From Nannocystis bainbridge (lineage in GTDB: Bacteria; Myxococcota_A; Polyangia; Nannocystales; Nannocystaceae): DNA of 64,000 nucleotides. Shown piece by piece: positions 13,133-63,696 of this stretch. Both the position numbers and the translations under genes were made by a program. Each line of letters starts with the position of its first letter. The first letter of the stretch is position 1. The notes beneath the pieces are model-generated. The model ran no database searches, was not told the DNA's origin, and was given only the letters and a program-made list of their open reading frames with translations. The stretch is from positions 1,920,001 to 1,984,000 of the forward strand of contig NZ_JAQNDL010000003.1 of the NCBI RefSeq assembly GCF_028368995.1. The letters run 5' to 3'.

Positions 13133-13382
13133 GAGTCAGCGCTCGTTCATGCCCGCGCATGTCCCTTCGGACATGGCCCATCGACCCTGTCCGGACCCGG
13201 GCAGGTCAGCGCCCGCCGGAAGCACCTGCCCCTTCGGACATGCCATCTATCCTGCCCCGCCGGGTCAGCGCCCGCCTGAAGCACCTGGCCCTTCGGACAT
13301 GCCTCTCCCCTACCCCGCCGGGTCAGCGCCGGTCATGCCGTCTTGCTCTTCGGACATGTCCCATCCACCATGTCCCGAAGAC
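13133..13382. repeat. Four tandem 58-70 bp units (GTCAGCGC...CTTCGGACATG) containing the CATG repeat
   Basis: Units begin near 13133, 13204, 13263 and 13321; the last overlaps the protease stop codon. Confidence 0.85.
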
Positions 13383-14651
13383 CAGCCATGCCAGGCCCCC
13401 GCGCTCTCCGCCGCTGCGGCAGCCGCAGCCCTCGTCCCCGCCCGACTCGCCCCCGCTCGAGGCGCTGTCGGCCCCGACCTCGATGACCACCGGCTCGGAG
13501 CGGGCGACGTGGCCGACCGCGTCCTCGGCGATCGCCACCAGCGTGTGGCTGCCGGCCGGGAACTCGGCGGCGCCGAAGCGCCACGGCGGCTCGGCGTCGC
13601 TGGCCTGCAGTTTGCCGTCGATCTCGAGCGCGACCTCGGCGACGCCCCAGCCGACGTCCGCGGCCTCGGCGACGATCTCGACGACCATCGGCTGCGGCCC
13701 CGCCGTCGGGCTCGTGATCACCACCGTCGGCGGGGTGTCGTCGGCGCTGGCGTCGAACGCCGGGCCGCAGCTGGTGCCCGCGGGCCCGGCCGGGGCGGCG
13801 GCGCAGAGATCGGTCCACGCGCCGGCGCCGGCGCTGTCGGCCGGGGCGAACCCGCTGCAGCGGAAATCGGGCTGCCAGGCGCCGTCGCCGGCGTGGCACG
13901 GAGTGAGGTCGAGCTCGGCCTCGGCCTCGAGCCAGTCGATCGCGGCGCTCGCGTACGCGTAGTGGCCGATCCCGCCGCAGCCGGCGGCGTGCACCGAGGC
14001 GACGCCGAACACCCGCCAGGTGTCGTCGGCGGCGCGCAGCAGCGCGGGCCCGCCGGAGTCGCCGGCGCACGGGCCCGCCTCGGTGAGCCCGCCGACCTCG
14101 AAGTAATCGGCGAGCACCAGCCGCACCGGCGCCGCGGCCCAGCGCTTGGGCCCGTCGCCGCTGCCGGACTCGGCCTCGCCGAAGCCGACGATGGTCGCCT
14201 CGGCCTTGGGCTCCAGCAGCGCCGCCTCGCAGCCGAACGCGATCGGCAACACCGGCACCGGCGCGGGCTCGGCGAGGCGGCAGAAGGCGAAATCGACGGC
14301 CTCGTCGCCGATGCCTCCGTAATCGGGGTGGACGCGGCAGAGTTCGGGCTCGACCGTGTGCGCGGGCGCCTGGGCCGACTCGCCGAAGCCGACCTTCATG
14401 CCAGTGGCGCCGCAGTGGGCGGCGTAAAGCACCAGGCGCGGATGCACGAGCGCGCCGGTGCAGCGGGTGCTGCCGTCGCCCAGCGAGACCACCCCCGGGA
14501 AGGCGCAGATCTCGGCCTCGGCGCCGCCGAAGATCGGGCTCGGCGGCGTCGGCAGGGCTGTCCGCGCGCCTGCCGCTCGCGCCTCGCCGACCAGCAGCAC
14601 GACCACGCTCGCCGCCGCCGAACCCACCCGGACCTGCCACCGCCGCTGCAT
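13323..14651 (-). CDS. Trypsin-like serine protease with Ig-like domain and MYXO-CTERM tail
   Basis: IFGG, YAAHC, DFA, GDSGGP catalytic motifs; GCGC plus TM plus basic tail. Confidence 0.92.
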   Translation of the reverse strand: MQRRWQVRVGSAAASVVVLLVGEARAAGARTALPTPPSPIFGGAEAEICAFPGVVSLGDGSTRCTGALVHPRLVLYAAHCGATGMKVGFGESAQAPAHTVEPELCRVHPDYGGIGDEAVDFAFCRLAEPAPVPVLPIAFGCEAALLEPKAEATIVGFGEAESGSGDGPKRWAAAPVRLVLADYFEVGGLTEAGPCAGDSGGPALLRAADDTWRVFGVASVHAAGCGGIGHYAYASAAIDWLEAEAELDLTPCHAGDGAWQPDFRCSGFAPADSAGAGAWTDLCAAAPAGPAGTSCGPAFDASADDTPPTVVITSPTAGPQPMVVEIVAEAADVGWGVAEVALEIDGKLQASDAEPPWRFGAAEFPAGSHTLVAIAEDAVGHVARSEPVVIEVGADSASSGGESGGDEGCGCRSGGERGGLAWLVFGTWWMGHVRRARRHDRR

Positions 14652-14766
14652 CGGCGCGAGGATGACACAGGGGCTCCGGGCCGCGCGACAATTGCTGCCG
14701 CTGCGCAGCGAGCGAGCGTATCATCGCGCCGCCGGCCGCAGCCGGACGACCCCCCGACGCTCGGAG

Positions 14767-16347
14767 ATGTCGATGCCTCTCAGCCTCTCGTGGCTCATCC
14801 TGACCCTCGCGACCGCCCCGGCCGCCGAGCCCGCCGCCACGCCCCCGACCTCCGAACCCGCGCCCGCACCGGCGCCAGCGGCCGCCACCGCCGACGCCGA
14901 AGCACGCGCCGAGCAGGCCGCCGTGCTGTACGGCCAGAAGAAGTACCTCGAGGCCGCGCAGATCTTCGAGGACCTGTGGGCCTCGGTGCACGAGCCGCGC
15001 GACCTGTTCAACGCCGGCCTCGCGCGCCTCGCCCTCGGCCACCGCGCTCACGCGATCCGCTACTGGGAGATCTATCTCCAGCAGACCGGGATCCCCGCAG
15101 ACGGGCGCGAGCAGGCCCAGAGCCGCAGCAAGAAGGCCCAGGCCGCCGCCACCGGCGTGATCGTCAAGATCGCCCCGTCGGCCGTGGCCGAGTTCGGCGC
15201 CACGCTGACGCTGACCCGCGTCGACGACGACAAGGACCAGCGCCCGCCGCTGGTCTACGAGCTGCCGCCGCGGGCCCCCGAGTTCACCGCCGGCGGCAAG
15301 ACGATCCACGTCGACCCCGGCAAGTGGGAGCTGAAGATCAGCGCGCCGACCTACGGGACCTCGACGCGCGACCTGACCATCAAGCCAGGTGCGCCGGGCT
15401 TCGTGCTCGACGTGGCGCTGGCCAGCGATCCGGCGTTCCGGGCCGCGAGCTTCCAGATCGGGCCGGGCGAGGCGGTCGCGGCCGGGGCGACGGTGTCGCT
15501 GCAGCGGCTGGCGCTGGGCGCCGTGCCGGTGCCGTGCCCGCTCGACGGTCGCGGCAATTGTGCGGTCCGCATCGAGCCGGGCGACTGGGAGGTCACGGTG
15601 CAGGCGCCCGGCTACCAGCGCCACGTCGAGAAGATCAGCCTCGGCGCCCAGCCGACCGCGACCTTCGCCGTCGCCCTCGCGCCGTCGCTGACGCCCGCGC
15701 CCGCGCCGACGCCCGCGCCCGCGCAGGCCGGCGCGACGCCGACGCCGGCCCCGGCCGAGGCCACCCCCGCGCCGCCGCCGGTGCCCGAGCGCGTGCCAAA
15801 GAAGACCCGCGTGCGGGTCTCGACCGGGCTCATCGTCTCGGGCGTGCCGGTGTTCATCACCGGCCTCGCGCTCGCGGTCCACGGCAGCAACGTCTACGAC
15901 GAGAAGAAGCTGGCGAAGGTGGCCAACGGCGACATGCTGCCGGCGATCCGCCTGCGCTCGGCGGGCTCGGGGCTGATGGGCGTGGCCGTCGGCCTGTGGG
16001 CCACCGGCCTGACCGCGGAGTACGACGTGAAGCCGTGGGTGTGGTGGACCGAGATCGGCGTCGGCGCGGCCGCGCTGCTGACCGGCGGCGTGTGGGCCGG
16101 CGTCAGCACCGGGCGCTGGAACGCCAACGCCACCGACTCGCTGGTCTGCACCAACAACGAGGGCCTCGACTGCTTCACCGCCCATCGCCTGGCCAGCGGC
16201 TTCTTCCTCGGCCTCGGCGCGGGCGCCATCGCCGGGGCGACCACCGGCCTGCTGGTGCAGCGCTTCCACCTCAAGAAGCGCCGCGTCAGCTTCGCGCCGA
16301 CGCTCGGCGGCGGCCAGGCCGGCTTCCTCGTCCACGGACGGTTTTGA
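14767..16347 (+). CDS. Secreted TPR/PEGA-like myxobacterial protein
   Basis: Signal peptide, TPR-like helices, beta-sandwich repeats, Pro-rich linker, C-terminal hydrophobic segments ending in F. Confidence 0.75.
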   Translation: MSMPLSLSWLILTLATAPAAEPAATPPTSEPAPAPAPAAATADAEARAEQAAVLYGQKKYLEAAQIFEDLWASVHEPRDLFNAGLARLALGHRAHAIRYWEIYLQQTGIPADGREQAQSRSKKAQAAATGVIVKIAPSAVAEFGATLTLTRVDDDKDQRPPLVYELPPRAPEFTAGGKTIHVDPGKWELKISAPTYGTSTRDLTIKPGAPGFVLDVALASDPAFRAASFQIGPGEAVAAGATVSLQRLALGAVPVPCPLDGRGNCAVRIEPGDWEVTVQAPGYQRHVEKISLGAQPTATFAVALAPSLTPAPAPTPAPAQAGATPTPAPAEATPAPPPVPERVPKKTRVRVSTGLIVSGVPVFITGLALAVHGSNVYDEKKLAKVANGDMLPAIRLRSAGSGLMGVAVGLWATGLTAEYDVKPWVWWTEIGVGAAALLTGGVWAGVSTGRWNANATDSLVCTNNEGLDCFTAHRLASGFFLGLGAGAIAGATTGLLVQRFHLKKRRVSFAPTLGGGQAGFLVHGRF

Positions 16348-16430: not shown

Positions 16431-17732
16431 ATGCTGACCCTCGCCCGCCCCCTGCTCGCCGCACCGCTCTGTGTCTGCACGCTCCTGACCGCCTGCGGCG
16501 ACGACGGCGGCGGTGTCCAGTCTGCCAGCGACACCGCGGCCACCAGCGAGGACACGACCGGCGACGACAGCACCACCGGCGGCCCCGGCACCACCGACGA
16601 TCCGACCTCGACCAGCGTCGGCCCGACCACCGGCGATCCGGTCACCGGCGATCCGGTCACCACGACGACCGGCGATCCGACCACCGGCGATCCGACCACC
16701 GACGGCACCACTGGCGACCCGCCGCCGCCCTCGCCGTGGGACGGCGAGCCGCTGCCCGAGGCCCCGCCCGGCGAGTGGACGTGGGTCGATTTCCCCGACG
16801 CGCTGTGTCGCGACGGCAGCAGCACCGGCATCGGCGTGCGCTACGGCAACGGCGACGGCCTCGTCGTCTACTTCCAGGGCGGCGGCGCCTGCTTCAACGC
16901 CCTCACCTGCGCCCAGAACCCGTCCAGCTTCGACGGCGGCGACTTCGACGGCTTCAACAGCGGCATCTTCGAGCCCGGCCCGCAGAACCCGGTCGGCGAC
17001 TGGACCCACGTGTTCGTCCCGTACTGCACCGGCGACGTGCACGCCGGCAACCGCCCCGACCAGATGTCGGAGGCCGGCATCCAGCAGTTCGTCGGCTTCC
17101 GCAACGTCGCCGCCTACCTCGAGCGCGTCGTCCCCACCTTCCCCGGCGTCGGCCACGTGCTCGTCACCGGCGAGAGCGCCGGCGGCTTCGGGGCCGCCTT
17201 CAACTACGACCGGATCGCCGACGCCTTCCCCGACGCGCGCGTCACCCTGCTCGACGACTCCGGCCCGCCGCTCGGCTTCGAGGTCGCGCCGCTGTGCCTG
17301 CAGCAGAAATGGAGCGACCTGTGGGGCTTCGACGACACGATCCCCGCCGGCTGCGAGGATTGCTTCCCCAGCCAGGGCGGCGGCATCGTCAACATCGGCC
17401 GCCACATCGGCCAAAAACACGCCGACCAGCGCCTCGCCCTCATCTCGTCGACCGGCGACTCGGTGATCCGCTTCTTCTTCGGCTTCGGCGGCAACGACTG
17501 CAGCGCCCTGCTGCCCAACACCCCCCAGGCTGCCTTCGAGGCCGCCCTGCTCGACGCCCGCGACAACTATTACAATGAGCCCGACGACGTGTGGGGCACC
17601 TTCTTCGTCGACAACAGCGAGCAGCACACCTTCCTCAGCAGCAGCCTCTACACGGCCAAGGTCGGCGACACCAAGCTGGTCGACTGGGTCTCCCAGCTGA
17701 TCGCCGGCCAGGTCTCGCACGTCGGGCCGTGA
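16431..17732 (+). CDS. Pectinacetylesterase-family lipoprotein
   Basis: LLTAC lipobox; FQGGGAC, YCTGDVHAG, TGESAGG. Confidence 0.9.
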   Translation: MLTLARPLLAAPLCVCTLLTACGDDGGGVQSASDTAATSEDTTGDDSTTGGPGTTDDPTSTSVGPTTGDPVTGDPVTTTTGDPTTGDPTTDGTTGDPPPPSPWDGEPLPEAPPGEWTWVDFPDALCRDGSSTGIGVRYGNGDGLVVYFQGGGACFNALTCAQNPSSFDGGDFDGFNSGIFEPGPQNPVGDWTHVFVPYCTGDVHAGNRPDQMSEAGIQQFVGFRNVAAYLERVVPTFPGVGHVLVTGESAGGFGAAFNYDRIADAFPDARVTLLDDSGPPLGFEVAPLCLQQKWSDLWGFDDTIPAGCEDCFPSQGGGIVNIGRHIGQKHADQRLALISSTGDSVIRFFFGFGGNDCSALLPNTPQAAFEAALLDARDNYYNEPDDVWGTFFVDNSEQHTFLSSSLYTAKVGDTKLVDWVSQLIAGQVSHVGP

Positions 17733-17747: not shown

Positions 17748-17824
17748 GGGACATGCTCGAAAGAGCATGTCCCATGGGGCATGGCTATCGCGCCATGCCC
17801 CTTCGAACATGTCCTTTGAACATT
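17748..17824. repeat. 14-bp-phased CATG array
   Basis: CATG at 17752, 17766, 17780, 17794, 17808, between convergent genes. Confidence 0.9.
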
Positions 17825-17898: not shown

Positions 17899-18585
17899 TC
17901 AGCTCGCGGGCCGGCGGCTCACCGCGGCGCCGATCGCCAGCGGCAAGAACCCATTGACGACGTTGAGCGCCAGCATCGCCGAATGCGACAGCAAACCGCG
18001 CCCGACCAGCAGCAGCGAGGCGATCAGGAGCGCGTGCATCACCACCCCGGTGGCGACCACCCACCCGCACTGCGCCGGCCGCAGGACGCCCGCGCGGACC
18101 GACGCGCGCAGGACCCACAGGCTCAGCGGCACGAACAGCACCACGCTCGTCAAAAGACCCGCGCCGTAGGTCCCCTGCGCCAGCGAGCCGGCGATGTGGA
18201 TCAGCCCGTTGACCAGCGGGATGCCCCACGCGCACGCCGCCACCAGCGGCCAGCGCCGGCGCAGCAGCACGGCGGTGACAAAGGCGATCTGGCACCCGCC
18301 GACGTTGACGGCGCACATGGTCGCCTCGTCGGCGGGACAGTGGGCGAGGTCGGGATAGCCGAGCGTGCGGCACAGGTCGACGAGGAAGGCGTATCGCCGG
18401 CCGAGCAGATCGATGCCGTGCTCCTCGAATTGATGCAGCAGGTACATCGGCCACAGCAACGCCAGGAGCCACGCCGGATCGCGCCAGCGCGAGCCCCCGC
18501 GGGCGGGCTGGATGGCCAACCAGACCAGCAACAAGACGGCGAGCCCGAGCCCGATGAAGGGCCAATCGCGGAGAAAACTTTCCAT
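17899..18585 (-). CDS. HXXEE-domain membrane protein
   Basis: LHQFEEH motif and several TM helices. Confidence 0.88.
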   Translation of the reverse strand: MESFLRDWPFIGLGLAVLLLVWLAIQPARGGSRWRDPAWLLALLWPMYLLHQFEEHGIDLLGRRYAFLVDLCRTLGYPDLAHCPADEATMCAVNVGGCQIAFVTAVLLRRRWPLVAACAWGIPLVNGLIHIAGSLAQGTYGAGLLTSVVLFVPLSLWVLRASVRAGVLRPAQCGWVVATGVVMHALLIASLLLVGRGLLSHSAMLALNVVNGFLPLAIGAAVSRRPAS

Positions 18586-18761: not shown

Positions 18762-19805
18762 ATGATTCGACCCCGCGCGACCGCCCCGCTCCTGCTGCTC
18801 CTCGGCGCCTGTCAGGCCGGCGGCGGCGACACCGACGCCACGACGACCACCGCCGACACCTCGACCAGCACTTCGGGACAGGTCTCTTCGACCACCACCG
18901 GCACGGGCGAGCCGACCACCACCGGCACCACCACGACCACCGGCACGGGCGAGCCGACCACCACCGGCACCACCACCGGCACCACCGACCCGGACGAGAC
19001 CACCGACACCGACGGCGCCGCGCCGATCGTCGTCGAGGGGCTCAGCGTCCCCGAGTCGATCCTCCACGACGTCGCCGCCGACGTCTATCTGATCAGCAAC
19101 ATCAACGGTACGCCGACCGCCACCGACGACAACGGCTTCATCAGCCGCGTCCTGCCCGACGGCACCGTCGACCAGCTCGCCTTCATCGACGGCGCCGACC
19201 CCGAGGTCACGCTCGACGCGCCGAAGGGCATGGCGATCGTCGGCGATTTTCTCTACGTCTCCGACATCACCGTCGTCCGCAAGTTCGACCGCACCACCGG
19301 CGCGCCGCTGGCCACGATCGCCATCGACGGCGCCGGCTTCCTCAACGACCTCAGCGCCGACGCCAGCGGCAACGTCTACGTCGGCGACATGCAGGTCGAG
19401 GCGATCCACGTCATCAACCCCGCCGACGAGCCCACGCTGCTGTTCGAGTCGAGCGACCTGCAGAACCCCAACGGTCTGCTCGCCGACGATCAGGGCGTGC
19501 ACGTCGTCACCAACGGCGGCACCAAGCTGCTCTACGTGCCGCGCCAGATGCCGGTGGTGATGGAGCTGTTCGACCTCGAGGCCAGCAGCCTCGACGGCCT
19601 CGCGCCCCACCCCGCCGGCGGCTGGCTGGTGTCCTCGTGGGAGACCAGCGCCGTCTACCACGTCAGCGCCGACCTGCAGACCGCCGCGGTCGTCGTCGCC
19701 GACATCAGCTCGCCGGCCGACATCGGCGTCGACACCGGCCGCGAGCGCGTGCTGATCCCCGTGTTCACCGAGAACCGCGCGGAGTTCCATCTCCTCGCCC
19801 CGTGA
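18762..19805 (+). CDS. SMP-30/gluconolactonase-like beta-propeller lipoprotein
   Basis: LLGAC lipobox, Thr-rich linker; PESI, APKGM, FLNDL, NPNGL, SPADI repeats. Confidence 0.85.
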   Translation: MIRPRATAPLLLLLGACQAGGGDTDATTTTADTSTSTSGQVSSTTTGTGEPTTTGTTTTTGTGEPTTTGTTTGTTDPDETTDTDGAAPIVVEGLSVPESILHDVAADVYLISNINGTPTATDDNGFISRVLPDGTVDQLAFIDGADPEVTLDAPKGMAIVGDFLYVSDITVVRKFDRTTGAPLATIAIDGAGFLNDLSADASGNVYVGDMQVEAIHVINPADEPTLLFESSDLQNPNGLLADDQGVHVVTNGGTKLLYVPRQMPVVMELFDLEASSLDGLAPHPAGGWLVSSWETSAVYHVSADLQTAAVVVADISSPADIGVDTGRERVLIPVFTENRAEFHLLAP

Positions 19806-19820
19806 GGGCGGCGCCGCAAA

Positions 19821-19922
19821 GGACATGGCTCTCGAGACATGTTCGTAAGACCATGAGATCGGTCGCTCCTCCTCGGGAGGAATCACATGTCTCTCGAGAC
19901 ATGTCTTCACGACCATGAGGTC
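19821..19922. repeat. Two 62-bp-spaced copies of a CATG triplet (14-bp phase)
   Basis: CATG at 19824/19838/19852 and 19886/19900/19914. Confidence 0.9.
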
Positions 19923-20012: not shown

Positions 20013-20477
20013 CTAGCCCGGCAGCCGGCACACCCCGTAGTCGGCCCACATCGGCGGCACATTGTCGCCGGAGAACACCGGCGCGCAGACCTCGGACGCG
20101 CTGCCGCACTGGGCCGAGGTGTCGCTGACCTCGCACAGCGAGCTGCAGCACGAGCCGGCCTCGCAGTCACCGAGCGCCACCGCCGACAGGCACACCAGGC
20201 CCGGGCCGCACTCGCCGGAGCCCTGGCACGCGTCTCCGGCGGCGCCGGCGATCGCGACCTCGATGCACACGAAGTCGCCGCCGACGAGCGAGCACGCCTG
20301 TCCGTCGGGACAGCTCTGGGCGAGCGGGTCGCACTCGACCACTGGCGGCGGCTCCTCGTCGTCGCCAGTGGTCGTCCCGGGCCCGCTGGGGCCATCGGTG
20401 GTCGGCCCGGACTCGAACTGAATGCAGCCGCCGGCGAGCAGCAGCGCGAGGGCGGCGACGAGACGCGGTCTTGACAT
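20013..20477 (-). CDS. Cys-rich lipoprotein
   Basis: LAGGC lipobox; CDPLAQSCP...CCSSLC pattern. Confidence 0.8.
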   Translation of the reverse strand: MSRPRLVAALALLLAGGCIQFESGPTTDGPSGPGTTTGDDEEPPPVVECDPLAQSCPDGQACSLVGGDFVCIEVAIAGAAGDACQGSGECGPGLVCLSAVALGDCEAGSCCSSLCEVSDTSAQCGSASEVCAPVFSGDNVPPMWADYGVCRLPG

Positions 20478-20551: not shown

Positions 20552-21478
20552 GTGAAGCACGAGACAGAAGGCCTCCCGGGCGACGGCGTGACCACCCACG
20601 TCCACGTGTGGACCCCCGACGACGGCCAGCCGGTCCGCGGGCTGGTCCAGGTGCTGCACGGCCTGGCCGAGCACGCCGGCCGCTACGAGGGCCTCGCGGC
20701 CGGCCTGTGCGACGCCGGCCTGGCCGTGGTCGCCCACGACCACCGCGGTCACGGCCGCTCGGCCGCCGGCCCCGACGAGCTCGGCTTCTTCGGCGACCGC
20801 GACGGCTGGGGCGCGGTGCTGGCCGACTCCGCCCGCGTCCGCGCCCACGCCCGCGCGCGCTTCGGCGACGTCCCGTGGGCGCTGCTCGGCCACAGCATGG
20901 GCTCGGTGGTCGCCCTGCACGACCTCGCCACCAGCGGGGCCCGGCCGACCGCGGTGATGCTGTCGGGCGCGACCGGCAAGGTCGGGGCGCTGCTGCGGAT
21001 CGGCCAGGGCCTCATCCGCGTCGAGCTGCGACGGATCGGCGCCCGCGGCCGCAGCAAGCTGCTCAACGCGACCGCGTTCGGGACCTACAACCGGGCGTTC
21101 CGCCCCAACCGCACCCAGTTCGACTGGCTGTCCGGCGAAGCGGCCCAGGTCGACGCCTACGTCGGCGACCCGCTGTGCGGCTTCTTGCCGACGACTTCGC
21201 TGTGGCGCGACCTGGTCGGCGGCCAGGCGCTGCTGCAGACCGATGCCTTCCTGGCCCGCCTGCCCCGCGTGCCCTACGCGGTGATCGCCGGCGACCTCGA
21301 CCCGGTCGGCGGCAAGGGCCGCCAGGTCGAAGCCCTGGTCAAGATGATGCGCAAGCTCGGCCTGCAGGTCGACCTGCGCATGTGGCCAGGCGGCCGCCAC
21401 GAGATGTTCCACGAGACCAATCGCGCCGACGTGGTCGCCGAGACGGTCCGGTGGCTCTCGAGCAAGCTCGCCGCCTGA
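20552..21478 (+). CDS. Alpha/beta hydrolase (lysophospholipase / Hydrolase_4)
   Basis: HGLAEHAGRY, DHRGHG, GHSMG, GRHEMFHE. Confidence 0.93.
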   Translation: MKHETEGLPGDGVTTHVHVWTPDDGQPVRGLVQVLHGLAEHAGRYEGLAAGLCDAGLAVVAHDHRGHGRSAAGPDELGFFGDRDGWGAVLADSARVRAHARARFGDVPWALLGHSMGSVVALHDLATSGARPTAVMLSGATGKVGALLRIGQGLIRVELRRIGARGRSKLLNATAFGTYNRAFRPNRTQFDWLSGEAAQVDAYVGDPLCGFLPTTSLWRDLVGGQALLQTDAFLARLPRVPYAVIAGDLDPVGGKGRQVEALVKMMRKLGLQVDLRMWPGGRHEMFHETNRADVVAETVRWLSSKLAA

Positions 21479-21509: not shown

Positions 21510-21577
21510 AGACATGTCCCACTGGACATGTCTCAGAGAACATTTTTAAAGGGACATGTCCTCATGAACATGTCCTT
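21510..21577. repeat. 14-bp-phased CATG array
   Basis: CATG at 21513, 21527, (CATT 21541), 21555, 21569. Confidence 0.9.
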
Positions 21578-21690: not shown

Positions 21691-22167
21691 TCAGCCGCGC
21701 AGCACGATCGACCGACTCTCGGCCGCATCGGTCACCTCGACGCGGGCGCAGCGGATCGGCGCCGACGCCCCTTTGGCCCCGGGCTCGAGGACGAGCTGGC
21801 CGCACACGGTATACGTGCCGGGCGCGACGTCCCCATAAACGAGGGGCCTGGTGGCATCCACGCCGCCGTTCAGGACCATCTTCACGGTCGCCCCAGGGGG
21901 CCGCGAAAGATCGTCCACTTCGTCGACCTCGACCTCGCCGGGGACGAGCCAGCCGAGGGCGTGATGGGTGCCCGCCGGCGCCTGGAGGTCGACGCGAAGT
22001 CGCCGCGGCTCCGCGAGCTGCCAATCGGCCCAAGCCTGAACCCCCGCCGCGACCCACTCGATCGCGACGGGGCTCGCCCTGGGCTCGGCCGGTACCCCGG
22101 TGCAATACGCATTCGATAGGACGAGCAGCAAGCTCGCGTGGATCCGCAGATTCCGGGTCGACAGCAT
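21691..22167 (-). CDS. Hypothetical exported protein
   Basis: Hydrophobic N-terminus; C-terminal beta-rich PGTYTVC segment. Confidence 0.55.
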   Translation of the reverse strand: MLSTRNLRIHASLLLVLSNAYCTGVPAEPRASPVAIEWVAAGVQAWADWQLAEPRRLRVDLQAPAGTHHALGWLVPGEVEVDEVDDLSRPPGATVKMVLNGGVDATRPLVYGDVAPGTYTVCGQLVLEPGAKGASAPIRCARVEVTDAAESRSIVLRG

Positions 22168-27195: not shown

Positions 27196-27412
27196 CCACA
27201 TGTCTCTCAGGGCATGACCTCGAGGACGGGTCTATCGTCGAGCGCACCACGCCCCGGGTCACCGGGCGACGCCGTCACTGAAACCTGCCCCCATGAACAT
27301 GTCCTAAAGGTCATGAATAGAATCGCCCTGCGGCTCGCCGGGTCTCGACCTCGCAATGGCATCACTGTTAGATAACCCAAAAGACATATCTTCAAAGACA
27401 TGTCCCGAGGAC
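27196..27412. repeat. Three clusters of 14-bp-phased CATG units
   Basis: Pairs 27199/27213, 27298/27312, 27385(CATA)/27399. Confidence 0.8.
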
Positions 27413-27416: not shown

Positions 27417-30227
<2,811 letters not shown>

Positions 30228-34430: not shown

Positions 34431-34540
34431 ATTGTCCTCATGGAAACTTCGGACATGCCCCAAGGGACATATCCGACGCGCCATCCATCGCCTGAACGAC
34501 TCTCATGAGCTTTGGACATGCCCCAAGGGACATGTCCGAA
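34420..34540. repeat. Two tandem ~64-bp units made of the sigma gene's last codons plus a CATG pair
   Basis: CCATCGCCTGAA at 34420 and 34485; GGACATGCCCCAAGGGACAT at 34451 and 34514. Confidence 0.85.
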
Positions 34541-43303: not shown

Positions 43304-43483
43304 TACGGCGAGCGGCCTCTCGCCTGGGGCGCGGCGCGTCCGCCTCTCGCTCCTGGCCGGCCACCCGCTCCACGCCGATTCGCCCGCGACAGCGGGCTTC
43401 GCCGCGCGCCGATTCCGCTCGCGACGACGGCGGCGCCGCGGGGCGCCGCCGTCTCGTCTGTCCCTTCGGACAGCTCTCTCGAA

Positions 43484-49189: not shown

Positions 49190-49224
49190 ACGTGTCCCTG
49201 CTGAACATGTCCTTCGGGCCATGT
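49190..49224. repeat. 14-bp-phased CATG pair
   Basis: CATG at 49206 and 49220. Confidence 0.7.
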
Positions 49225-55699: not shown

Positions 55700-58440
55700 G
55701 CCTGATCCACCCTATCGAGGAGAGGAGCGTCGCCGACCCGCGGCGCGGGCGGATGACGCTGTATTTCGGGGCGGCGCCCGGGGTCGGCAAGACCTACGCC
55801 ATGCTCGAGGCGGCCCAGCGGCTGCGTCGGCAGGGCGTCGACGTGATCGTCGGCGCGGTCGACACCCACGGGCGGCCCGAGGTCGCCGACCTGCTGGTCG
55901 GGCTCGAGCGCCTGCCGTCGCGCACCGTCGAGACCCGCGGCAAGGTCATCGAGGAGTTCCACCTCGACGCCGCGCTGGTGCGCCGGCCGAGCCTCGTCGT
56001 CGTCGACGACCTCGGGCACGTCAACGCCGCCGGCTCGCGCCACAACCAGCGCTGGCACGACGTCATCGACCTGCTGGCCGCCGGCGTCGACGTGATGTCG
56101 ACCCTGTGCGTGCAGCAGCTCGAGAGCCAGCACGACGTGGTCCAGCAGATCACCTCGATGCGGGTCCGCGACCCGGTGCCCGACGCGATGTTCGAGCGCG
56201 CCGACCACGTCGAGTTCATCGACCCGCCGGCCAAGGAGGTGCTGACGCGCCTGCAGGACGGCAAGGTCAACATCCCCGAGCAGGACGCCCGCGCGGCCGC
56301 GGCGATGTACCGCAAGAACAGCCTGCTGGCGCTGCGCGAGCTGGCGCTGCGGCGCATGTCGCAACGGACAGGTCGAGAGAACCTGATCTACCGCAGCGCG
56401 CCGCGGCTCGGCGCGGGGCCGACTTCCGAGCGCATCCTCGTGTGCGTCGACCCGAGCTCCCTGGGGCCGCGGCTGATCCGCGCCGCCTTCCGCATGGCCA
56501 CCGGGCTGCGCGCCGAGTGGTTGGCGCTGTACGTCGAGACCCCGCGGCTGGCGCTGGCCGGCGAGTCGGCGCGGGCCCAGGTCGGCGAGACCTTGCGCCT
56601 CGCCGAGCAGCTCGGGGCCGAGGTCGTCCACATCAGCGGCGCCCGCATCGACCGCGAGATCCTCGGCTTCGCCCGGGCCCGCGGCGCCACCCGCCTCATC
56701 ATCGGCAAGCCGCTGCAGCACCGCTGGCGCGACATCCTGCGCGGCTCGCTGGTCGACGCGCTGGTGCGCGGCTCGGGCGACCTCGACGTCCACGTGATCG
56801 CCGGCGACATCGCCCCGCACGAGGTGACGCCGGTGCCCGCCCTGCGCTCGCCGATCCGCATCGCCGCCTACTTCTGGGCCGCGCTGACGGTGGCCACCAT
56901 CGCCGCGACGCGGCTGCTGCACCTGCCGCTGTTCTACGTGATCGTGCTGCTGCTGGTCGGCATCGCCCTGGTCGGCTCGCGGCTCGGTCGCGGCCCGGCG
57001 CTCGGGGCGGCGCTGCTCAGCATCCTTGCGGTCGAGACTTCGCTGCGGCTCGACCTCGACCTGGACCCCATCGACGACCTGCAGCGGGCGGCGATCTACC
57101 TCGGCATGCTGGTGCTGGCGCTGTGGGTCTCGGGCCTGACCGAGCTCAGCCGCCGCCAGGCCGAGGCGGCCCGCGTCGACGAGCGGCGGCTGACGGCGCT
57201 GTACCTGCTGAGCCGCGAGCTGTCGCAGCTGCGCAGCGAGGTCGACATCGCCGAGTGCGCGATCCGCCACGTCAAAAAGACCATGTCCGCGCGGACCGTC
57301 ATCCTCCTGCACGGGCACGACGGCGAGCTCGCGCCGGTGGCGGGGACTGACGTCGAGCTGACGACCGACGCGCGCGAGGAGGGCGTGGCCCGCTGGGCCT
57401 TCGAGCACGGGCCGGCCGGGCGCGGGACCGAGACGCTGAAGGCCGCGCAGGCGCTGTACCTGCCGCTGACCGCCGCCGGGCGCACGATCGGCGTGCTCGG
57501 GGTCGCCCCCGACGACCCCGACAAGCTGGCCAGCCCGGCCGAGCGCCAGCTTCTCGACGCCATGACCGGGCCGGTCGCCCTCGCGCTGCAGCGGGTCCGC
57601 CTGGCCGAGGAGGCCCAGGTCGCCGAGGTCCGCGCGCGCGAGGAGGAGCTGCGCGGCTCGCTGCTTTCGTCGGTCAGCCACGACCTGCGCACGCCGCTGG
57701 CGTCGATCACCGGGGCCGCCAGCGCGATGCTCGACAGCGGCGACGCGATCGCCTTCGAGACTCGCCGCGACCTGCTGCAGACCATCTATGAGGAGGCCGA
57801 GCGGCTCGGGCGGCTGGTCGGCAACCTGCTCGACATGACCCGGCTCGAGGCCGGCTCGGTCGCGCTGCGGACCGACTGGGTCGCGCTCGAGGACCCGATC
57901 GGCTCGGCCCTGGCCCGGCTCGACCGCCGCCTGGCCGGGCGCGAGGTCCAGGTCACGCTGCAGCCCGATCTGCCGCTGCTGGCGCTCGACGAGGTGCTGT
58001 TCGAGCAGCTGATCCTGAACCTGCTGGAGAACGCCTGCAAGCACACCCCGGCGGGCAGCCCGATGCGGTTGGTGGCGCGGGTGCAGGCCGGGCGGGTGAT
58101 GGTCGAGGTGGCGGACCGCGGCCCGGGGCTGCCGGCCGGCGAGGAGGAGACGATCTTCGAGAAGTTCGTGCGCGGCAGCAAGGCCAAGACCCAGGGGTTC
58201 GGGCTCGGGCTGGCGATCTGCCGGGCGATCGCCGCGGCCCACGGCGGTGAAATCACGGCGGAGAACCGGGCGGGCGGCGGGGCCGTGTTCCGGATCAGCC
58301 TGCCGATCGGCGCCGGCCCGCCGGAACCCGCCCCCGACACCTCGCTCGCGTCGATGAGCGGCCCCTCGGGCATGCTACACAACACGGCGAAGATCCTGCT
58401 GCAGCAGGCGTCGGGCCTGGAGGCGGAGACGACGACATGA
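55696..58440 (+). CDS. kdpD: Sensor histidine kinase KdpD
   Basis: GAAPGVGKTYAML, Usp domain, TM bundle, GAF, SVSHDLRTPL. Confidence 0.96.
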   Translation: MSLIHPIEERSVADPRRGRMTLYFGAAPGVGKTYAMLEAAQRLRRQGVDVIVGAVDTHGRPEVADLLVGLERLPSRTVETRGKVIEEFHLDAALVRRPSLVVVDDLGHVNAAGSRHNQRWHDVIDLLAAGVDVMSTLCVQQLESQHDVVQQITSMRVRDPVPDAMFERADHVEFIDPPAKEVLTRLQDGKVNIPEQDARAAAAMYRKNSLLALRELALRRMSQRTGRENLIYRSAPRLGAGPTSERILVCVDPSSLGPRLIRAAFRMATGLRAEWLALYVETPRLALAGESARAQVGETLRLAEQLGAEVVHISGARIDREILGFARARGATRLIIGKPLQHRWRDILRGSLVDALVRGSGDLDVHVIAGDIAPHEVTPVPALRSPIRIAAYFWAALTVATIAATRLLHLPLFYVIVLLLVGIALVGSRLGRGPALGAALLSILAVETSLRLDLDLDPIDDLQRAAIYLGMLVLALWVSGLTELSRRQAEAARVDERRLTALYLLSRELSQLRSEVDIAECAIRHVKKTMSARTVILLHGHDGELAPVAGTDVELTTDAREEGVARWAFEHGPAGRGTETLKAAQALYLPLTAAGRTIGVLGVAPDDPDKLASPAERQLLDAMTGPVALALQRVRLAEEAQVAEVRAREEELRGSLLSSVSHDLRTPLASITGAASAMLDSGDAIAFETRRDLLQTIYEEAERLGRLVGNLLDMTRLEAGSVALRTDWVALEDPIGSALARLDRRLAGREVQVTLQPDLPLLALDEVLFEQLILNLLENACKHTPAGSPMRLVARVQAGRVMVEVADRGPGLPAGEEETIFEKFVRGSKAKTQGFGLGLAICRAIAAAHGGEITAENRAGGGAVFRISLPIGAGPPEPAPDTSLASMSGPSGMLHNTAKILLQQASGLEAETTT

Positions 58441-59156
58441 GCGAACAGGGGCCATTGGTACTCATCGTCGAGGACGAAGCACCGTTGCGGCGGTTCCTGC
58501 GGGCGGCGCTGGTCGCCCAGAACTACCGCCTGGTCGAGGCCGAGACGGCCGCCGAGGGGCTGCAGCGGGCCACCGAGCACAACCCGGACATCGTCCTGCT
58601 CGACCTCGGCTTGCCCGACGGCGACGGGCTCGACGTCACCTCGCGGCTGCGCGAGTGGACCCGTGTGCCGATCATCGTCCTGTCGGCCCGCGGCCAGGAG
58701 CGCGACAAGGTGCAGGCGCTCGACGCCGGGGCCGACGACTACCTGACCAAGCCGTTCGGCACCAGCGAGCTGCTGGCGCGGATCCGGGTGGCGCTGCGGC
58801 GGGTCGCCGAGCGCACGCCGACCGAGGAGCCGATCGTGTCGCTCGGCGAGGTCACCGTCGACCTGGCGCGCCGGCTGGTCACGCGCGCCGGCAAGCCGGT
58901 CCACCTCACGCCGCACGAGTACAAGCTGCTCACCACCCTGCTCAAGTACGCCGGCAAGGTCGTGACCCACAAGCAGCTGCTCAAAGAAGTCTGGGGCCCG
59001 CAGGCGGTCAGCCAGACGCACTACCTCCGGGTCTACATGGCCCAGCTGCGGCAGAAGCTCGAGGGCGACCCGGCCCGGCCGCGCTACCTGACCACCGAGC
59101 CGGGCGTCGGCTACCGCCTGCGCTCCGAGGACGACATCGCCGGGGGCGCCGCGTGA
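58437..59156 (+). CDS. kdpE: Response regulator KdpE
   Basis: LIVEDE, LLDLGLPDGDG, YLRVYMAQLRQKLE...TEPGVGYR. Confidence 0.96.
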   Translation: MSEQGPLVLIVEDEAPLRRFLRAALVAQNYRLVEAETAAEGLQRATEHNPDIVLLDLGLPDGDGLDVTSRLREWTRVPIIVLSARGQERDKVQALDAGADDYLTKPFGTSELLARIRVALRRVAERTPTEEPIVSLGEVTVDLARRLVTRAGKPVHLTPHEYKLLTTLLKYAGKVVTHKQLLKEVWGPQAVSQTHYLRVYMAQLRQKLEGDPARPRYLTTEPGVGYRLRSEDDIAGGAA

Positions 59157-60028
59157 ACCGCCGGCGCGACCGCCCAGTCGCGCTGCTGGACACCTCGCAG
59201 GCGCTGCCGGCCGTGGCCGACGAGCTGCCGACGCCGCGCCTGCGCCGACTGATGCTGCGAGCCCTGGGGGTGCCGCTGGCGGCGATGTTGCTGCTGTGCG
59301 GGCTGCTCGGCGCCGCGCTGGCGGTCGCCGCCGGGGACGAGGCCGAGGCCGCCCGCGCGCGCACCGTCGTCGCCGAGGCCCACCACGTCCAGCGGCTGGT
59401 GCTCGACCAGGAGGCCGCGCTGCGCGGCTTCGCGATCGGGGGCGAGGATAAATTCTTGCCGCCGCTGCACAGCGGCCGCGCGATGGTCCCACCGGCGCTG
59501 CGCCGCCTGGCCGAGCTGACGGCCGGCGACCGCGCGCAGGAGGCCCGCACCGCCGCGCTGGCGGCCGCCTACGGGCGCTGGGTCGCGGCCACCGGCATGA
59601 CGCCGACAGGCCCGCGCGCCGGCGCACCGGTGCTCCCGGGCGAGCCGTCGCGGCTGGCCGCGCGCGCGGCCCAGCTCGAGGCGGTCCGCCAGCTCGTGCG
59701 CCAATTGGTCGACGCCGAGCACGGGCGCACCGGCGCCGACCAGGCGAGCAGTTGGTCGCTGGCCGCGATCGCGGCCGGGCTGGCGGTCGCCCTGGCGCTC
59801 GTCGGCCTCACGACCTCGGCGCTGCGCCGATCGATCCGCCGCATGGAGGGCGTCTACGCCAGGGCCCTGGTGATGCGCCGCCACAGCGAGGCCAGCGAGC
59901 GCGCCGCCCGACGCTCGGCCGAAGCCCTGGCCGCCGAGGTCGCCGCCCACAGCCGCGAGCTGCAGGCCCGCTTCCGGGCCGCGCGCGACGAGCTCGAGCT
60001 GGCGCGGGCGCCCGCGCGAGCGAGCTGA
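59153..60028 (+). CDS. CHASE3-domain membrane protein with no output domain
   Basis: TM, then LVLDQEAALRGFAIGGEDKFLPP, then TM and a short coiled coil; GTGA overlap with kdpE. Confidence 0.75.
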   Translation: MNRRRDRPVALLDTSQALPAVADELPTPRLRRLMLRALGVPLAAMLLLCGLLGAALAVAAGDEAEAARARTVVAEAHHVQRLVLDQEAALRGFAIGGEDKFLPPLHSGRAMVPPALRRLAELTAGDRAQEARTAALAAAYGRWVAATGMTPTGPRAGAPVLPGEPSRLAARAAQLEAVRQLVRQLVDAEHGRTGADQASSWSLAAIAAGLAVALALVGLTTSALRRSIRRMEGVYARALVMRRHSEASERAARRSAEALAAEVAAHSRELQARFRAARDELELARAPARAS

Positions 60029-60380: not shown

Positions 60381-61853
60381 ATGGTGACGAACATCCCCTG
60401 GATCATGATCGCGGGCACCGGCACCGACCCGCTGCCCGCCGAGCTCGAGACCGTGGCCCACCAGCTCGGCGTGGCCCTGGCGCGGGCCGACTGCGGCGTC
60501 ATCTCCTGCGGCTGGGCCGGCGTCGACCGTGCGCTCGGGGCCGCGTTCGTCGCCGAGCTGCGCGCCACCCGGCGAGACCCGCGAGACCGCTTCAAGCAGG
60601 TGCTGCAGCGCGGGCGCACCCCGTCGGTCGAGGACGGCGAGTCGATCGACGTCGAGCAGGACGCCGAGGAGTACCTCGTCGCCGTCGACCGGGCCGACGT
60701 CGTGATCCTGCTGGCCGGGCGCGGCGGCACGTACCTCGTGTACAAGCACGCGCGGCGGGCCAACAAGCTCGTGCTGCCGCTGCCGGCCACCGAGGGCGAC
60801 GCGCGGCGGGCCTTCGGCGACATCCGCGACAAGTTCGATCGCGCCGCCAACCTCGGCGTCACCGCGAGCGAGTTCGCCGCCCTCGATCGACCGGCAGGCG
60901 AGGCCGCGGAGGCGGTCCTGCGGCTGATCCGCCAGCACCTCGAGGCGAGGGAGATCCGCGACGGCGACTACCTCAAGGCGGACAGCGTCGTCGGCCGCGA
61001 CAACGAGGCCGCGTTCACGCGATTGGTCCGGGAGATCCAGCGGACCGACATGCTCGGGTTCATCGGCGCCGGTGCGTCGATCCCCGGCGGCTACCCCGAC
61101 TGGGGCACGCTGATCGATCGCATGCGCCACGCGCTGCCGTCCGAGATCGCCCGCACGATGGCGTGGGTGGCCCGCGAGGACGACATGCTCATGCGCGCCG
61201 AGCACTACCGCTCTCTGCTCGGCGAGGACTACGGCCGCTTCATCCGCGAGCAGTTCGACGACGACGCCGGCAGGTGCGGCCCGCTGCACCTCGACCTGGT
61301 CCGCCTGCCGGTCGCGCACGTGCTCACGACCAACTACGACACGCTGCTCGAGCGGGCCCACGCGCAGGCGCACCCGGGCGAGCTGCCGCTGCCGACCGAC
61401 TGGAAGAACGCGTCGGACGTCGAGTCCTTCCTCCGCGCGGCCCGCCGCCGCGGCGAGCGCCGCCGCTACGTGCACGTGCACGGGCTCTACAACGACCCGG
61501 CCCACGTCGTCCTGACCGAGAGCGACTACCAGGAGCGCTACTGCCGGGAGACCGCGAGCGAGGCGCTGCTGTCGGCGCTGTTCACCGCCCACGCGTTCCT
61601 GTTCGTCGGCTTCTCGTTCAGCGACCTCGACGTGATGGGGGTGTTCCGCAACACGATGGCGCGGGTCCGCGTCAGCGAGCCGCTGCACTACGCGTTCATG
61701 GCCCTCGACCCCCGCACGCACGACCCGACGCTGGTCCGCCGCCGCCTGCGGCAGAAGTTCAAGATCGACCCGATCTTTTATATGTACACGCCGGACCACG
61801 CGGGCCTGCGCCAGCTCGTCACGCGCCTGCTGGCGACGACGACACCAGCGTGA
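60381..61853 (+). CDS. SLOG-SIR2 fusion protein (putative NADase defence effector)
   Basis: N-terminal SLOG (IAGTG, LGVALARADCGVISCGWAGVD, VILLAGRGGT, LPLPATEGDA); C-terminal SIR2 (FIGAGAS...PDW, TTNYD, HVHG, LFVGFSFSD). Confidence 0.88.
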   Translation: MVTNIPWIMIAGTGTDPLPAELETVAHQLGVALARADCGVISCGWAGVDRALGAAFVAELRATRRDPRDRFKQVLQRGRTPSVEDGESIDVEQDAEEYLVAVDRADVVILLAGRGGTYLVYKHARRANKLVLPLPATEGDARRAFGDIRDKFDRAANLGVTASEFAALDRPAGEAAEAVLRLIRQHLEAREIRDGDYLKADSVVGRDNEAAFTRLVREIQRTDMLGFIGAGASIPGGYPDWGTLIDRMRHALPSEIARTMAWVAREDDMLMRAEHYRSLLGEDYGRFIREQFDDDAGRCGPLHLDLVRLPVAHVLTTNYDTLLERAHAQAHPGELPLPTDWKNASDVESFLRAARRRGERRRYVHVHGLYNDPAHVVLTESDYQERYCRETASEALLSALFTAHAFLFVGFSFSDLDVMGVFRNTMARVRVSEPLHYAFMALDPRTHDPTLVRRRLRQKFKIDPIFYMYTPDHAGLRQLVTRLLATTTPA

Positions 61854-61860: not shown

Positions 61861-61940
61861 CGCATGCCCCCGAGGGCATGCTTTTAATGGACATGCGCTG
61901 AAGGACATGCCCGTCCAGACATGTCCATTACGCCATGCTA
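61861..61940. repeat. 14-bp-phased CATG array
   Basis: CATG at 61863, 61877, 61892, 61906, 61920, 61934. Confidence 0.9.
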
Positions 61941-61946
61941 TGCACG

Positions 61947-62324
61947 TTACTCGCTCTCGGCGACCCCGGCGAACGCCCGCCGGTACAGCCAGGCCTTGAC
62001 GTCCTCCTGGCTCATGCACCACAGCAGATAGGCGCCGAACACCAGCGGCGTGATCAGCTGCAGCTGCACCACCAGCGGCAGGTGAGTGATGAGCGCGCCG
62101 ACCGTGAACACCGCGAGCATGCCCACCAAAATGTTGAGCACGCCGACCACCACCGCCAGCGACCGCGCGCCCTCGCTGCCGCGCACGAGGCCGACCACCA
62201 AGAACAGCTTGAGCGCGAGGTTGACGTAATTCGGGATGGTGTAGTTGCCCCCCGTGATGTGCATGACCTGCATCACCGTGGCGAGGGCGAGGAGTACGAG
62301 CGCGACGATCAACTTGACGGGCAT
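61947..62324 (-). CDS. Small membrane protein
   Basis: Four hydrophobic helices; C-terminal DVKAWL. Confidence 0.7.
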   Translation of the reverse strand: MPVKLIVALVLLALATVMQVMHITGGNYTIPNYVNLALKLFLVVGLVRGSEGARSLAVVVGVLNILVGMLAVFTVGALITHLPLVVQLQLITPLVFGAYLLWCMSQEDVKAWLYRRAFAGVAESE

Positions 62325-62521
62325 GGGGGTGCGAGGACGAGACCGCACCCCGCCGGCACGGTCAAGCGGATTCTCCTCGCTAGCACGCGGGTCGAACGGC
62401 GAACGAGCGCGATGAAACCTGTCCTGACGCGGCTGTGCTCCAGCAGGCGCTCCCGCCGAAGGGCTCGCCCCGCACCCGCCTCGCCGAGTTTCTTGCTAAG
62501 AACGCGATCGAGGATATCGCC

Positions 62522-63627
62522 ATGTCCAGCGCCGACGATGAGTTCGGCGAAGAAGCCGAGCCCGCGCCGCCAGTGAACCGCGAGCAATTCTTCGAGTGGC
62601 GTTCGCCCCGGTTCGGCGCCGCCAACCCCGAGCCTTTGAGCAACCCCGTTTGGTCATGGCTGGTGCACGCGCGACTCAAAGCCTGGGAAGCCGACCGTCG
62701 ATTCGCCGCTCAGGAGCCCGAGGGCCCGTGCTGGTGCTTCGACCGCTTCGGCCAGAGCGCCACCGAGCTGCCCGACGGTCGCACGATCTACGTCGCCGGC
62801 GTCCACGAAGATCCGTCCGACCCTGGATTTCACCGCTACAACGACGTGGTCGTCCGCCACCCCGACGATCGCTGCGAGATCTTCGGTTACCCGCGCGACG
62901 CCACTCGGCGACGCTCGTCGAAAGCGAGGGCCGCCGCCGCATCATCCTGATCGGCAACCTCGATCTCCCGCCGCAGCAAACCCTAAACTGCACCCCGGTG
63001 TATGGCCTCGACCTCGCCGATCTCGCAATCACGGAGATCGCGACCACGGGCGCCACGCCGGGGTGGATTTACGGTCACAGCGCCGTGCTCGCCGATGAGG
63101 GTCGCACCATCGTCGTATCGCGCGGCAAACGCCTCGACGAACACCACGCGTCCCACGAGAACATCGACGACTGGCGGCTCGATCTCTCCACCTGGCGATG
63201 GCAGCGACTGACCGAGCGGCGATGGCCGCGGCGGGAGCTGCGGCGCGCCGACGGTCAGCGCAATTGCCTGAGTGACCTGCAGGAGGCCCAGTGGATGCGC
63301 GGGACCAGCCTGGTCCCGGAGCTCGGCGCGCTGCTCGAGAAGCTGGAGCGGGACCTCGGCGTCGTCCCCGACCTCGACCTCGTCGCGCGGCTGTTTCGCC
63401 CCTCGGTGGCTCACGAGGCGCTGCCGGAGGCAGACGGCCCGTTCAACGTCGTGCGCATCGTCGTCGCCAGCGTGGTCGTGCGCTTCGTCCATGAATCGTA
63501 CGCGCTGCAGATGACCGTGGAGGGCGACCTGCCGCTGGCCACAGTCGACGCGATCGCCGAGGAGCTGCGCGCCCGGCTCTCGACGCTGCAGCACACGGAC
63601 TGGACCCTGACCCCGATCGGCGCCTGA
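62522..63627 (+). pseudogene. Conserved hypothetical (Kelch-like) gene with a frameshift at about 62900
   Basis: First frame WCFDRFGQS...YNDVVV...FGYPRD; second frame HSATLV...IILIGNL...PGWIYGHSA. Confidence 0.75.
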
Positions 63628-63660
63628 ACCCGCGGCGAGGGCGCAGTCGCCTGCACTTCG

Positions 63661-63696
63661 GAGCATGCCCCTTCGGACATGCCCCGAAGTACATTA
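63661..63696. repeat. 14-bp-phased CATG array
   Basis: CATG 63664, CATG 63678, CATT 63692. Confidence 0.8.

Follow-up and report, generated by a model that had tools for sequence, protein, structure and literature searches.

Introduction

Short palindromes recurring across a bacterial chromosome have been described in several forms, and we compare with them here a palindromic word that is tiled at a 14-bp period in Nannocystis bainbridge. It was noticed in a 64,000-nucleotide stretch of contig NZ_JAQNDL010000003.1 (positions 1,920,001 to 1,984,000, hereafter the window), in which a first-pass annotation of the bare sequence had reported dispersed, phased CATG palindromes. The REP, BIME, and REPIN elements are short palindromes tagged with GTAG or CGTC (PMC3733652). 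PadR of Bacillus subtilis is a winged helix-turn-helix (wHTH) dimer that binds an 18-bp CATG-N10-CATG palindrome, and in its crystal, where the DNA is pseudo-continuous, a second dimer sits on a "bridge operator" displaced by 14 bp (PMC5728393). Proteins bound to DNA can also act as roadblocks to transcription; Mfd is a major factor in this mode of termination, and in a model a trailing ribosome makes polymerase about 13 times more resistant to a roadblock (PMC10310618). The terminator protein Rho is missing from Cyanobacteriota and, among 12 Myxococcota surveyed, from Haliangium alone; according to that survey, neither the reasons for Rho loss nor its substitutes are established (PMC11347177).

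A 14-bp palindrome in exact register

The genome analyzed (label G000) comprises 11.05 Mb at 71.5% GC on five contigs, C1 to C5, and the window is C2:1920001-1984000. Distances between CATG tetramers within the window have maxima at 14 (22 pairs), 28 (9), and 42 bp (5). Genome-wide, 3736 pairs lie 14 bp apart, 2073 lie at 28, 1586 at 42, and 751 at 56 bp, over a background of 60-160 pairs at off-frame distances and about 250-420 at the remaining multiples of three. The 14-bp phase that the first-pass annotation had proposed, and had staked on genome-wide peaks at 14 and 28 bp, is thus present far over background, and the coordinates it gave for two arrays (17752-17808 and 61863-61934) are exact. 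Its rare 13- and 15-bp steps do exist in the window, once each (at 34504 and 61877), but their genome-wide counts of 72 and 262 are background.

The repeating unit had been given as RGACATGYCY followed by four free bases. This motif is indeed periodic, but its register is better placed elsewhere. Copies of TGTCC-Nk-GGACA number 1987 at k=4 and 379 at k=18, with at most 20 at every other k up to 24; copies of GGACA-Nk-TGTCC number 956 at k=0, where the half-sites abut, versus 4-19 at k=1-13. The minimal unit is the 14-bp word TGTCC-N4-GGACA, and the relaxed form of this two-fold symmetric word is TG(Y)CC-N4-GG(R)CA. Because 1357 of 3663 TGTC-N6-GACA words have CATG on neither flank, CATG is the seam of abutting units and is dispensable to a single one. 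The CATG-less words favor R-S-C on the left, a preference that the ACA end of a neighboring unit also satisfies, and within two-unit arrays CATG stands at 2348 of 2692 inner junctions (strand-counted). The N4 core is 52% AT and avoids central TA, AC, and GT steps. No terminal GTAG or CGTC tag appears in the unit flank profiles, the ends reading S-C/A and then TG.

A weight matrix built on the unit gave 11705 matches with a score of at least 10, versus 641 on the reversed genome, and the genome-wide tally is 2870 arrays (at least two units) and 5018 strong singles. Array lengths are bimodal, with modes at 2-3 and 5-6 units (1354, 612, 235, 376, 211, and 60 arrays of 2, 3, 4, 5, 6, and 7 units, respectively) and a maximum of 21. 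Strong units follow each other at 14 bp in 2473 cases and at 15, 16, 17, 18, 19, and 20 bp in only 3, 3, 8, 2, 1, and 2, other out-of-phase distances mostly having 10-45. The 15-20 bp exclusion zone looks like a protein footprint. Smaller peaks in spacing, at 21-22 and 36 bp, suggest that units can also pack in a second, looser way.

Constraint on the word as duplex DNA

The word is kept by selection as double-stranded DNA, singly across native genes and in head-to-tail arrays. Inside genes the strict word occurs 688 times, versus 6, 16, and 6 times in three synonymous shuffles, and it does so in all frames and evenly along genes. Divergence was measured in five relatives with 36-54 kb aligned each, the comparisons being pooled and non-independent and the units having been picked on the N. 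bainbridge genome. On that basis, intergenic differences affected 5/90 positions of TG..CA, 38/135 of the arms, and 33/89 of N4, versus 2588/12857 of the background. Only TG..CA is held; the arms diverge at or above the background rate, and N4 at about twice that rate.

Pairing within the unit, or across the seam, equals the expectation from column frequencies, even where one side departs from consensus. The asymmetry of the arms reverses between leading- and lagging-strand genes and not with the transcribed strand; it therefore follows replication skew, not G-U wobble. A two-unit block is common to only 17 of 1135 intergenic arrays, and five of six genic sites aligned to motif-negative homologs contain no indel. 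Adjacent units are identical in 35 cases versus 1 in random pairs, which points to local 14-bp slippage as the maker of arrays.

Among the interpretations offered by the first-pass annotation, a site for a polymerising DNA-binding protein fits best, given the fixed spacer, exact abutment, 15-20 bp exclusion, and lack of covariation. It had also correctly set the arrays apart from CRISPRs and GTAG-type REPs: there is no tag, the period is 14 bp, the arms are degenerate, and the 4-bp core is variable.

Gene ends and the replication axis

Gene positions were taken from our own gene calls (8361 genes, 84% coding). Arrays of at least three units occur, per 100 kb, 203 times in convergent spacers, 53 times in tandem spacers, 10 times in divergent spacers, and 4 times within genes. 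Where free space was present, 68% of 186 convergent arrays (expected 30%) and 60% of 183 tandem arrays (expected 8%) lay at most 20 bp from a stop codon. Singles behave likewise, with 286 in the 20 bp after stops versus 20-35 per bin inside genes, and array starts peak at -3 and +2, where TGA is part of the word. Since stops are hugged despite free space, a preference for the least-constrained DNA is ruled out as the sole cause of array position. Arrays were found in 541 of 815 convergent spacers between genes with high G+C at third codon positions (GC3) and in 19 of 102 beside lower-GC3 genes, and gene content varies at array-bearing junctions.

To locate the origin and terminus we used GC skew together with a cluster of parS sites (C1:4.343 Mb) and a dif-like site (C3:1519949); contig order was inferred, with C4 and C5 set at their midpoints. 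On this map, the share of native convergent spacers with at least five units is 0.25, 0.21, 0.21, 0.36, and 0.36 in successive Mb from the origin and 0.48 beyond five Mb (n=1182), and array length, given an array, follows the same axis (rho 0.20, p 4e-7). AT drift was rejected as the cause of this gradient, GC3 being flat at 0.95. In a single-contig relative (G001), the chromosome third closest to dif holds 15 of 17 distinct six-CATG arrays (p 4.5e-6). The distribution is not of the matS type: arrays lie on all contigs, only long arrays are biased toward dif, and the longest unit-free gap is at most 23 kb.

Some individual regions on this map stand out. The 21-unit array (C3:1237889-1238183), which is AT-richer and twice the length of any other, lies between YbjQ-like and pyridoxal phosphate-dependent enzyme genes. 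Near dif, C3:1536000-1572000 resembles a prophage or an integrative and conjugative element, with two proteins carrying Fis-like domains and arrays around replication-type genes. The last 20 kb of C1 and of C2 are near-identical with inverted pieces, as from a duplication or an assembly artefact.

Taxonomic range

A lineage-specific, genome-wide system had been suspected, and the word indeed occurs in three genera of its order and was not found when 250 other genomes of the phylum were searched. Strict word counts are 114-2090 in all 11 genomes of the genus, 87-169 (4/4 genomes) and 67-295 (5/5 genomes) in two further genera, at most 20 in the other 40 genomes of the order, and at most 14 in the 250 sampled from the phylum. 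CATG triplet arrays exceed 1000 in six genomes of the genus and number 2-62 in the other five. When an exact two-unit pattern was searched in a collection of species genomes, the 49 loci listed comprised 32 from Nannocystis, 14 from Mesorhizobium, and 3 isolated ones; the same pattern was not found in viral contigs. The Mesorhizobium loci belong to a separate dispersed palindrome of fixed sequence that holds the same 14-bp word, has 105 copies in one genome and 49 in another, is often paired about 124 bp apart, and recurs at the same few places within and between genes. We take it to be a RIME- or MITE-like element (MITE, miniature inverted-repeat transposable element).

Arrays in the window

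About 13 loci with 2-6 units each had been listed for the window. Those near 13160, 43460, 47670, and 49200 proved to have only one strong unit each, and arrays at 13343, 50662, and 57256 lie beyond that list. Their reported placement after stop codons, usually between convergent genes, mostly stands, with 55450 inside a kdpB-like coding sequence, 35880 upstream of a gene, and 47670 between divergent genes as exceptions. The loci are given below without strand, the strands of neighboring genes being in brackets.

13160-13299: singles at 13160, 13227, and 13286, beyond the stop of trypsin-like gene 13323-14651(-)
13343-13384: 3-unit array within the last codons of gene 13323-14651(-), present in 5/5 relatives examined
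17754-17809: 4-unit array flanked by partial units, in the convergent spacer of genes 16431-17732(+) and 17899-18585(-)
19812-19915: one array of 3 and one of 2 units, in the convergent spacer of genes 18762-19805(+) and 20013-20477(-)
21515-21570: 4-unit array, between convergent genes 20552-21478(+) and 21691-22167(-)
27201-27400: three 2-unit arrays (27201, 27286, 27373), behind the stop of kinase-TPR gene 27417-30227(-)
34433-34546: 2-unit array plus two singles, in the convergent spacer of genes 33546-34430(+) and 34650-35741(-)
35877-35918: 3-unit array upstream of hydrolase gene 34650-35741(-), its position held in 5 relatives while arms and spacers diverge
43459-43472: single unit between convergent genes
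47673-47686: single unit between divergent genes
49208-49221: single unit with CATG on both flanks, between convergent genes
50662-50689: 2-unit array within coding sequence 50402-51760(+)
55449-55476: 2-unit array within kdpB-like P-type ATPase gene 53669-55699(+)
57256-57297: 3-unit array within kdpD gene 55696-58440(+), indel-free in five relatives
61865-61935: 5-unit array that includes a single 15-bp step, in the convergent spacer of genes 60381-61853(+) and 61947-62324(-)
63652-63693: 3-unit array between convergent gene 62998-63627(+) and a gene ending at 63706(-)

Behind the gene ending at 17732, units are present in 5/5 relatives, their sequence and number differing. Conserved intragenic arrays lie in a kdpB-kdpD-kdpE-like operon (53669-60028), which is followed by a gene with a SIR2-like domain (60381-61853). 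The element at 1-10.6 kb had been described as free of arrays, which it is, yet it holds four single units (2728, 6979, 8343, and 9234) versus 46 in the other 53 kb. This integrated element (1-10583) encodes a large helicase, an M23 peptidase, a ClpP-like SDH protease, and a tyrosine integrase (9567-10583).

A predicted roadblock and its alternatives

From the geometry of the word, we infer that a sequence-specific homodimer probably binds it and polymerises cooperatively at the 14-bp period, neighbors sharing the CATG seam as PadR dimers do in their crystal. For the role of such a lattice our preference is more tentative and falls somewhat short of an even chance: it may be a bidirectional transcription roadblock, either terminator or insulator, that replaces a lost Rho. 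Rho (TIGR00767) scored over cut-off in 0 of 25 genomes of the family, including single-contig G001, motif-bearing or not, and in 12 of 16 other genomes of the class, a thirteenth having a near-full-length match below cut-off; the class genomes outside the family without a Rho match are G033, G034, and G037. A tblastn search of the N. bainbridge genome with the Rho of a relative returned weak ATPase-like matches only. Mfd is present (TIGR00580 over cut-off at C5:12955-15891), and U-tract terminators were found in 111 of 1015 convergent spacers.

Under the roadblock reading, a ribosome trailing the polymerase would push it past the units that lie in coding sequence. When the ribosome departs at the stop codon and its push is lost, the polymerase would stall within the array and be released by Mfd. 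Convergent genes would require arrays of five or six units, each polymerase having to clear the first units in order to finish its stop codon, and arrays would begin by 14-bp slippage between CATG seams and then diverge. A ribosome-sensitive roadblock would explain the harmless genic sites, the two-fold symmetry, the hugging of stops, and the 5-6 unit mode. In its fullest form, one cooperative dimer would tile about ten thousand sites, let ribosome-coupled polymerase pass, and block uncoupled or antisense polymerase behind stops from either direction, and the length of arrays would be tuned to position along the origin-terminus axis; as a whole, this scheme is possible though doubtful.

A number of findings weigh against the roadblock. 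The terminus gradient is not predicted by termination. Gene calls contain 370 arrays of at least three units and 2965 singles, short co-oriented spacers (30-60 bp) are filled by arrays in 55 of 503 cases, other arrays lie upstream of genes, and a proxy of expression based on codon bias revealed no trend. Next to arrays, U-tract terminators are no less common, being present in 72 of 574 convergent spacers with arrays and 39 of 441 without; non-array hairpins are somewhat rarer there (16% of 198 vs 25% of 158). Rho loss does not depend on the motif, as is shown by fourteen Rho-less family genomes, 12 of them with at most seven words, and by three Rho-less class genomes; in most of the family's other genera, Rho and the word are both missing. 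No substitute phased word was found in 385 kb from four motif-negative Rho-less relatives (85-100 kb each), a scan that recovers the 14-bp word in 100 kb of the N. bainbridge genome. RNA folding gain over shuffles is 7.7 kcal/mol at unit-bearing convergent ends (284 ends), versus 2.1 at unit-free ends (106 ends) and 1.9 in motif-negative relatives (98 ends), and no reader protein was found among the candidates examined. Finally, stalling takes place some bases before the polymerase reaches a bound protein, so arrays that abut the stop are awkward for a roadblock unless the first units are displaced.

Because the roadblock leaves the terminus gradient and the missing U-tract trade-off unexplained, the next reading, less probable but still a serious one, gives the same protein lattice a role in chromosome structure. 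The lattice would be a docking site for a topoisomerase or nucleoid protein where positive supercoiling accumulates (downstream of genes, between convergent ones, and toward the replication terminus), in the manner of gyrase at BIMEs and of the proposal for HIP1 of cyanobacteria. The rise in long-array share at flat GC3 and the position of long arrays near dif in G001 agree with it, as do the even spread of singles along genes and the absence of unit-free gaps longer than 23 kb; a nucleoid role has been argued for HIP1 (PMC5861425). Docking leaves the hugging of stops in free space unexplained, however, the gradient depends on an inferred contig order, and arrays are found everywhere and not in one macrodomain. 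Moreover, an abundant wHTH nucleoid-like family does not track the motif.

The word could instead act in RNA, as REP- or TRIT-like elements in which any arm pairs with any other and hairpins stabilize mRNA or pause polymerase in both directions. We regard this as unlikely. The position after stops and between convergent genes resembles that of REPs and of TRIT (PMC3152330), and the folding gain at unit-bearing ends shows that hairpins at transcript ends, which the first-pass annotation had envisaged, are possible. There is no sign that they are the selected feature: a hairpin needs no loop of exactly 4 nt, exact 14-bp abutment, or exclusion zone, no compensatory change was seen, the G-U asymmetry tracks replication, only TG..CA is held, and no Rfam match was found in the window. 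Nor do the arrays have the features of intrinsic terminators or TRIT, with U-tracts in only the 72 array-bearing spacers above and no covariation. The folding of array-bearing ends is likely an RNA side effect of the arrays.

Slightly less likely again is an uptake or recombination signal, comparable to DNA uptake sequences, uptake signal sequences, or HIP1, that accrues through a bias in uptake, repair, or recombination and labels DNA as self. The abundance of the word in coding DNA in all three frames would suit such a drive, as would the bias of arrays to high-GC3 spacers, the variable gene content at array junctions, and the lack of the two-unit pattern in viral contigs. A drive does not, however, predict exact phasing, the exclusion zone, the 5-6 unit mode, or the terminus gradient, and any word that is gained slowly should be depleted from foreign DNA.

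Another suggestion of the first-pass annotation, that the arrays are clusters of CATG methylation sites by which self DNA is marked, is very improbable. CATG is the dominant seam and the genome has 21 loose matches to N6/N4-methyltransferase motifs, but more than a third of the words do without a CATG flank, and low-count relatives carry hundreds of words and few CATG triplets. Outside units, CATG is not enriched: its observed/expected ratio of 1.17 lies within the 1.09-1.36 of five other palindromic tetramers (GTAC and CTAG being at 0.79 and 0.19). A mobile MITE or REPIN family, likewise suggested, is already largely refuted and hardly tenable, for although arrays at one gene end differ wholly between species and the fixed-sequence Mesorhizobium palindrome holds the same word, there is no REP-associated tyrosine transposase (RAYT), almost no copying of blocks between loci, and no indel at most aligned genic sites.

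Search for a reader protein

Several families were considered as readers of the word and rejected. RAYT (PF01797) has 0 matches in the N. bainbridge genome, which is 90% complete; CGTC REPs likewise lack a RAYT (PMC3733652). PadR (PF03551) also has 0 matches there, and its matches in 26 of 59 order genomes are unrelated to motif status. LexA is encoded by a single copy whose upstream sequence is without the word; the LexA box is spaced CTGT-N8-ACAG. A small wHTH gene lies behind a degenerate triplet in relative G013, and its N. bainbridge ortholog has no array. A 189-aa basic wHTH family (C2:1707006) occurs in 56 of 59 order genomes, whether or not they carry the motif. This protein has an N-terminal helical domain, a flexible linker, a C-terminal wHTH, and strong ribosomal-type codon bias, and from its sequence it looks like an undescribed nucleoid-associated family of Myxococcota.

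Each of the 59 order genomes encodes a stand-alone Fis-type HTH_8 protein of about 70 aa, whose locus is conserved where it was examined; N. bainbridge paralogs lie at C2:2991539, C2:73091, C5:53556, and elsewhere. Copies number 3-14 in the 19 motif-positive genomes versus 1-3 in the 40 motif-negative ones (33 with one), and they correlate with word density among positives (rho 0.70, kin not being independent). The family is a weak candidate, improbable as the reader: its recognition helix is the same in motif-negative genomes, and no paralog has an upstream array. Six of the paralog promoters share a different, 17-bp element of the TG-N13-CA type at -41 to -60. The expansion in motif-positive genera may be one clade event.

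Reading the sequences of 90 small soluble genes with an upstream array revealed no obvious DNA-binding family, and no common gene family adjoins the longest arrays (21, 11, and 10 units) or those of low-count genomes. The genome also encodes a 65-aa basic protein with high-expression codon bias (C1:1377114-1377311), which presumably resembles a bacterial histone.

Comparison with known systems

The literature searched on Nannocystis repeats and methylomes and on Rho-free or roadblock termination, subscription journals being outside its scope, yielded no description of such a system; the phased lattice is real and undescribed in that literature. How transcription ends in Rho-less, GC-rich bacteria with few U-tract terminators is the question it bears on, and this cultured genus offers about ten thousand candidate sites of sharp geometry. 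If the lattice is a dedicated termination system acting at the DNA, it would join intrinsic hairpins and Rho as a third general mode in bacteria. A structural role would instead make it a novel type of chromosome signal, phased and graded toward the terminus, that offers a tractable counterpart to HIP1. Either way, gene ends that carry arrays bear on the heterologous expression of Nannocystis natural-product clusters.

REP, BIME, and REPIN elements share with the Nannocystis word their abundance as short palindromes after stops and between convergent genes, where roles in termination, mRNA stability, and supercoiling have been proposed. Unlike them, the word is untagged, RAYT-less, and uncopied, has a fixed 4-bp spacer and no covariation, is tiled at 14 bp, and lies within genes by the thousand. 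It differs from MITEs in having no near-identical copies at unlinked loci, and from CRISPRs in its 14-bp period, in lacking near-identical repeats with long unique spacers, and in the absence of any Rfam match in the window.

HIP1 is also a lineage-restricted, hyper-abundant palindrome conserved within and between genes (PMC5861425), and its cyanobacterial hosts likewise lack Rho (PMC11347177), but it is a contiguous, methyltransferase-tied 8-mer, for which the available part of that paper describes no phased arrays or gene-end clustering, whereas the Nannocystis word is gapped and CATG is dispensable. TRIT of Mycobacterium resembles the word as a genus-restricted stop-codon palindrome of a GC-rich host, proposed as a bidirectional terminator with a possible protein partner; unlike it, TRIT has 147 copies of a structured RNA-type motif in a Rho-bearing host, with no gapped in-register tiling (PMC3152330). 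In roadblocks by LacI, CcpA, CodY, or Fis with Mfd, and by Reb1 in yeast, a bound protein stalls polymerase and, in the bacterial cases, Mfd releases it; those cases are single loci, and no dedicated genome-wide lattice is described in the part of the source available (PMC10310618).

PadR operators have the same CATG-N10-CATG geometry as the word and, in the crystal, its 14-bp period; they differ in being few and local, and the Nannocystis word depends on the CC/GG within its arms but can do without the outer C. By this analogy, PadR is the best structural precedent for a 14-bp lattice. The matS sites of MatP, the Noc-binding sites (NBS), the SlmA-binding sites (SBS), and MetJ boxes are likewise short palindromes read by dimers that organize the chromosome or tile cooperatively. 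They number tens to low hundreds and are confined to or excluded from the terminus or restricted to promoters, unlike the roughly ten thousand stop-codon-tied sites of N. bainbridge. The word is REP-like in position and PadR- or MetJ-like in geometry.

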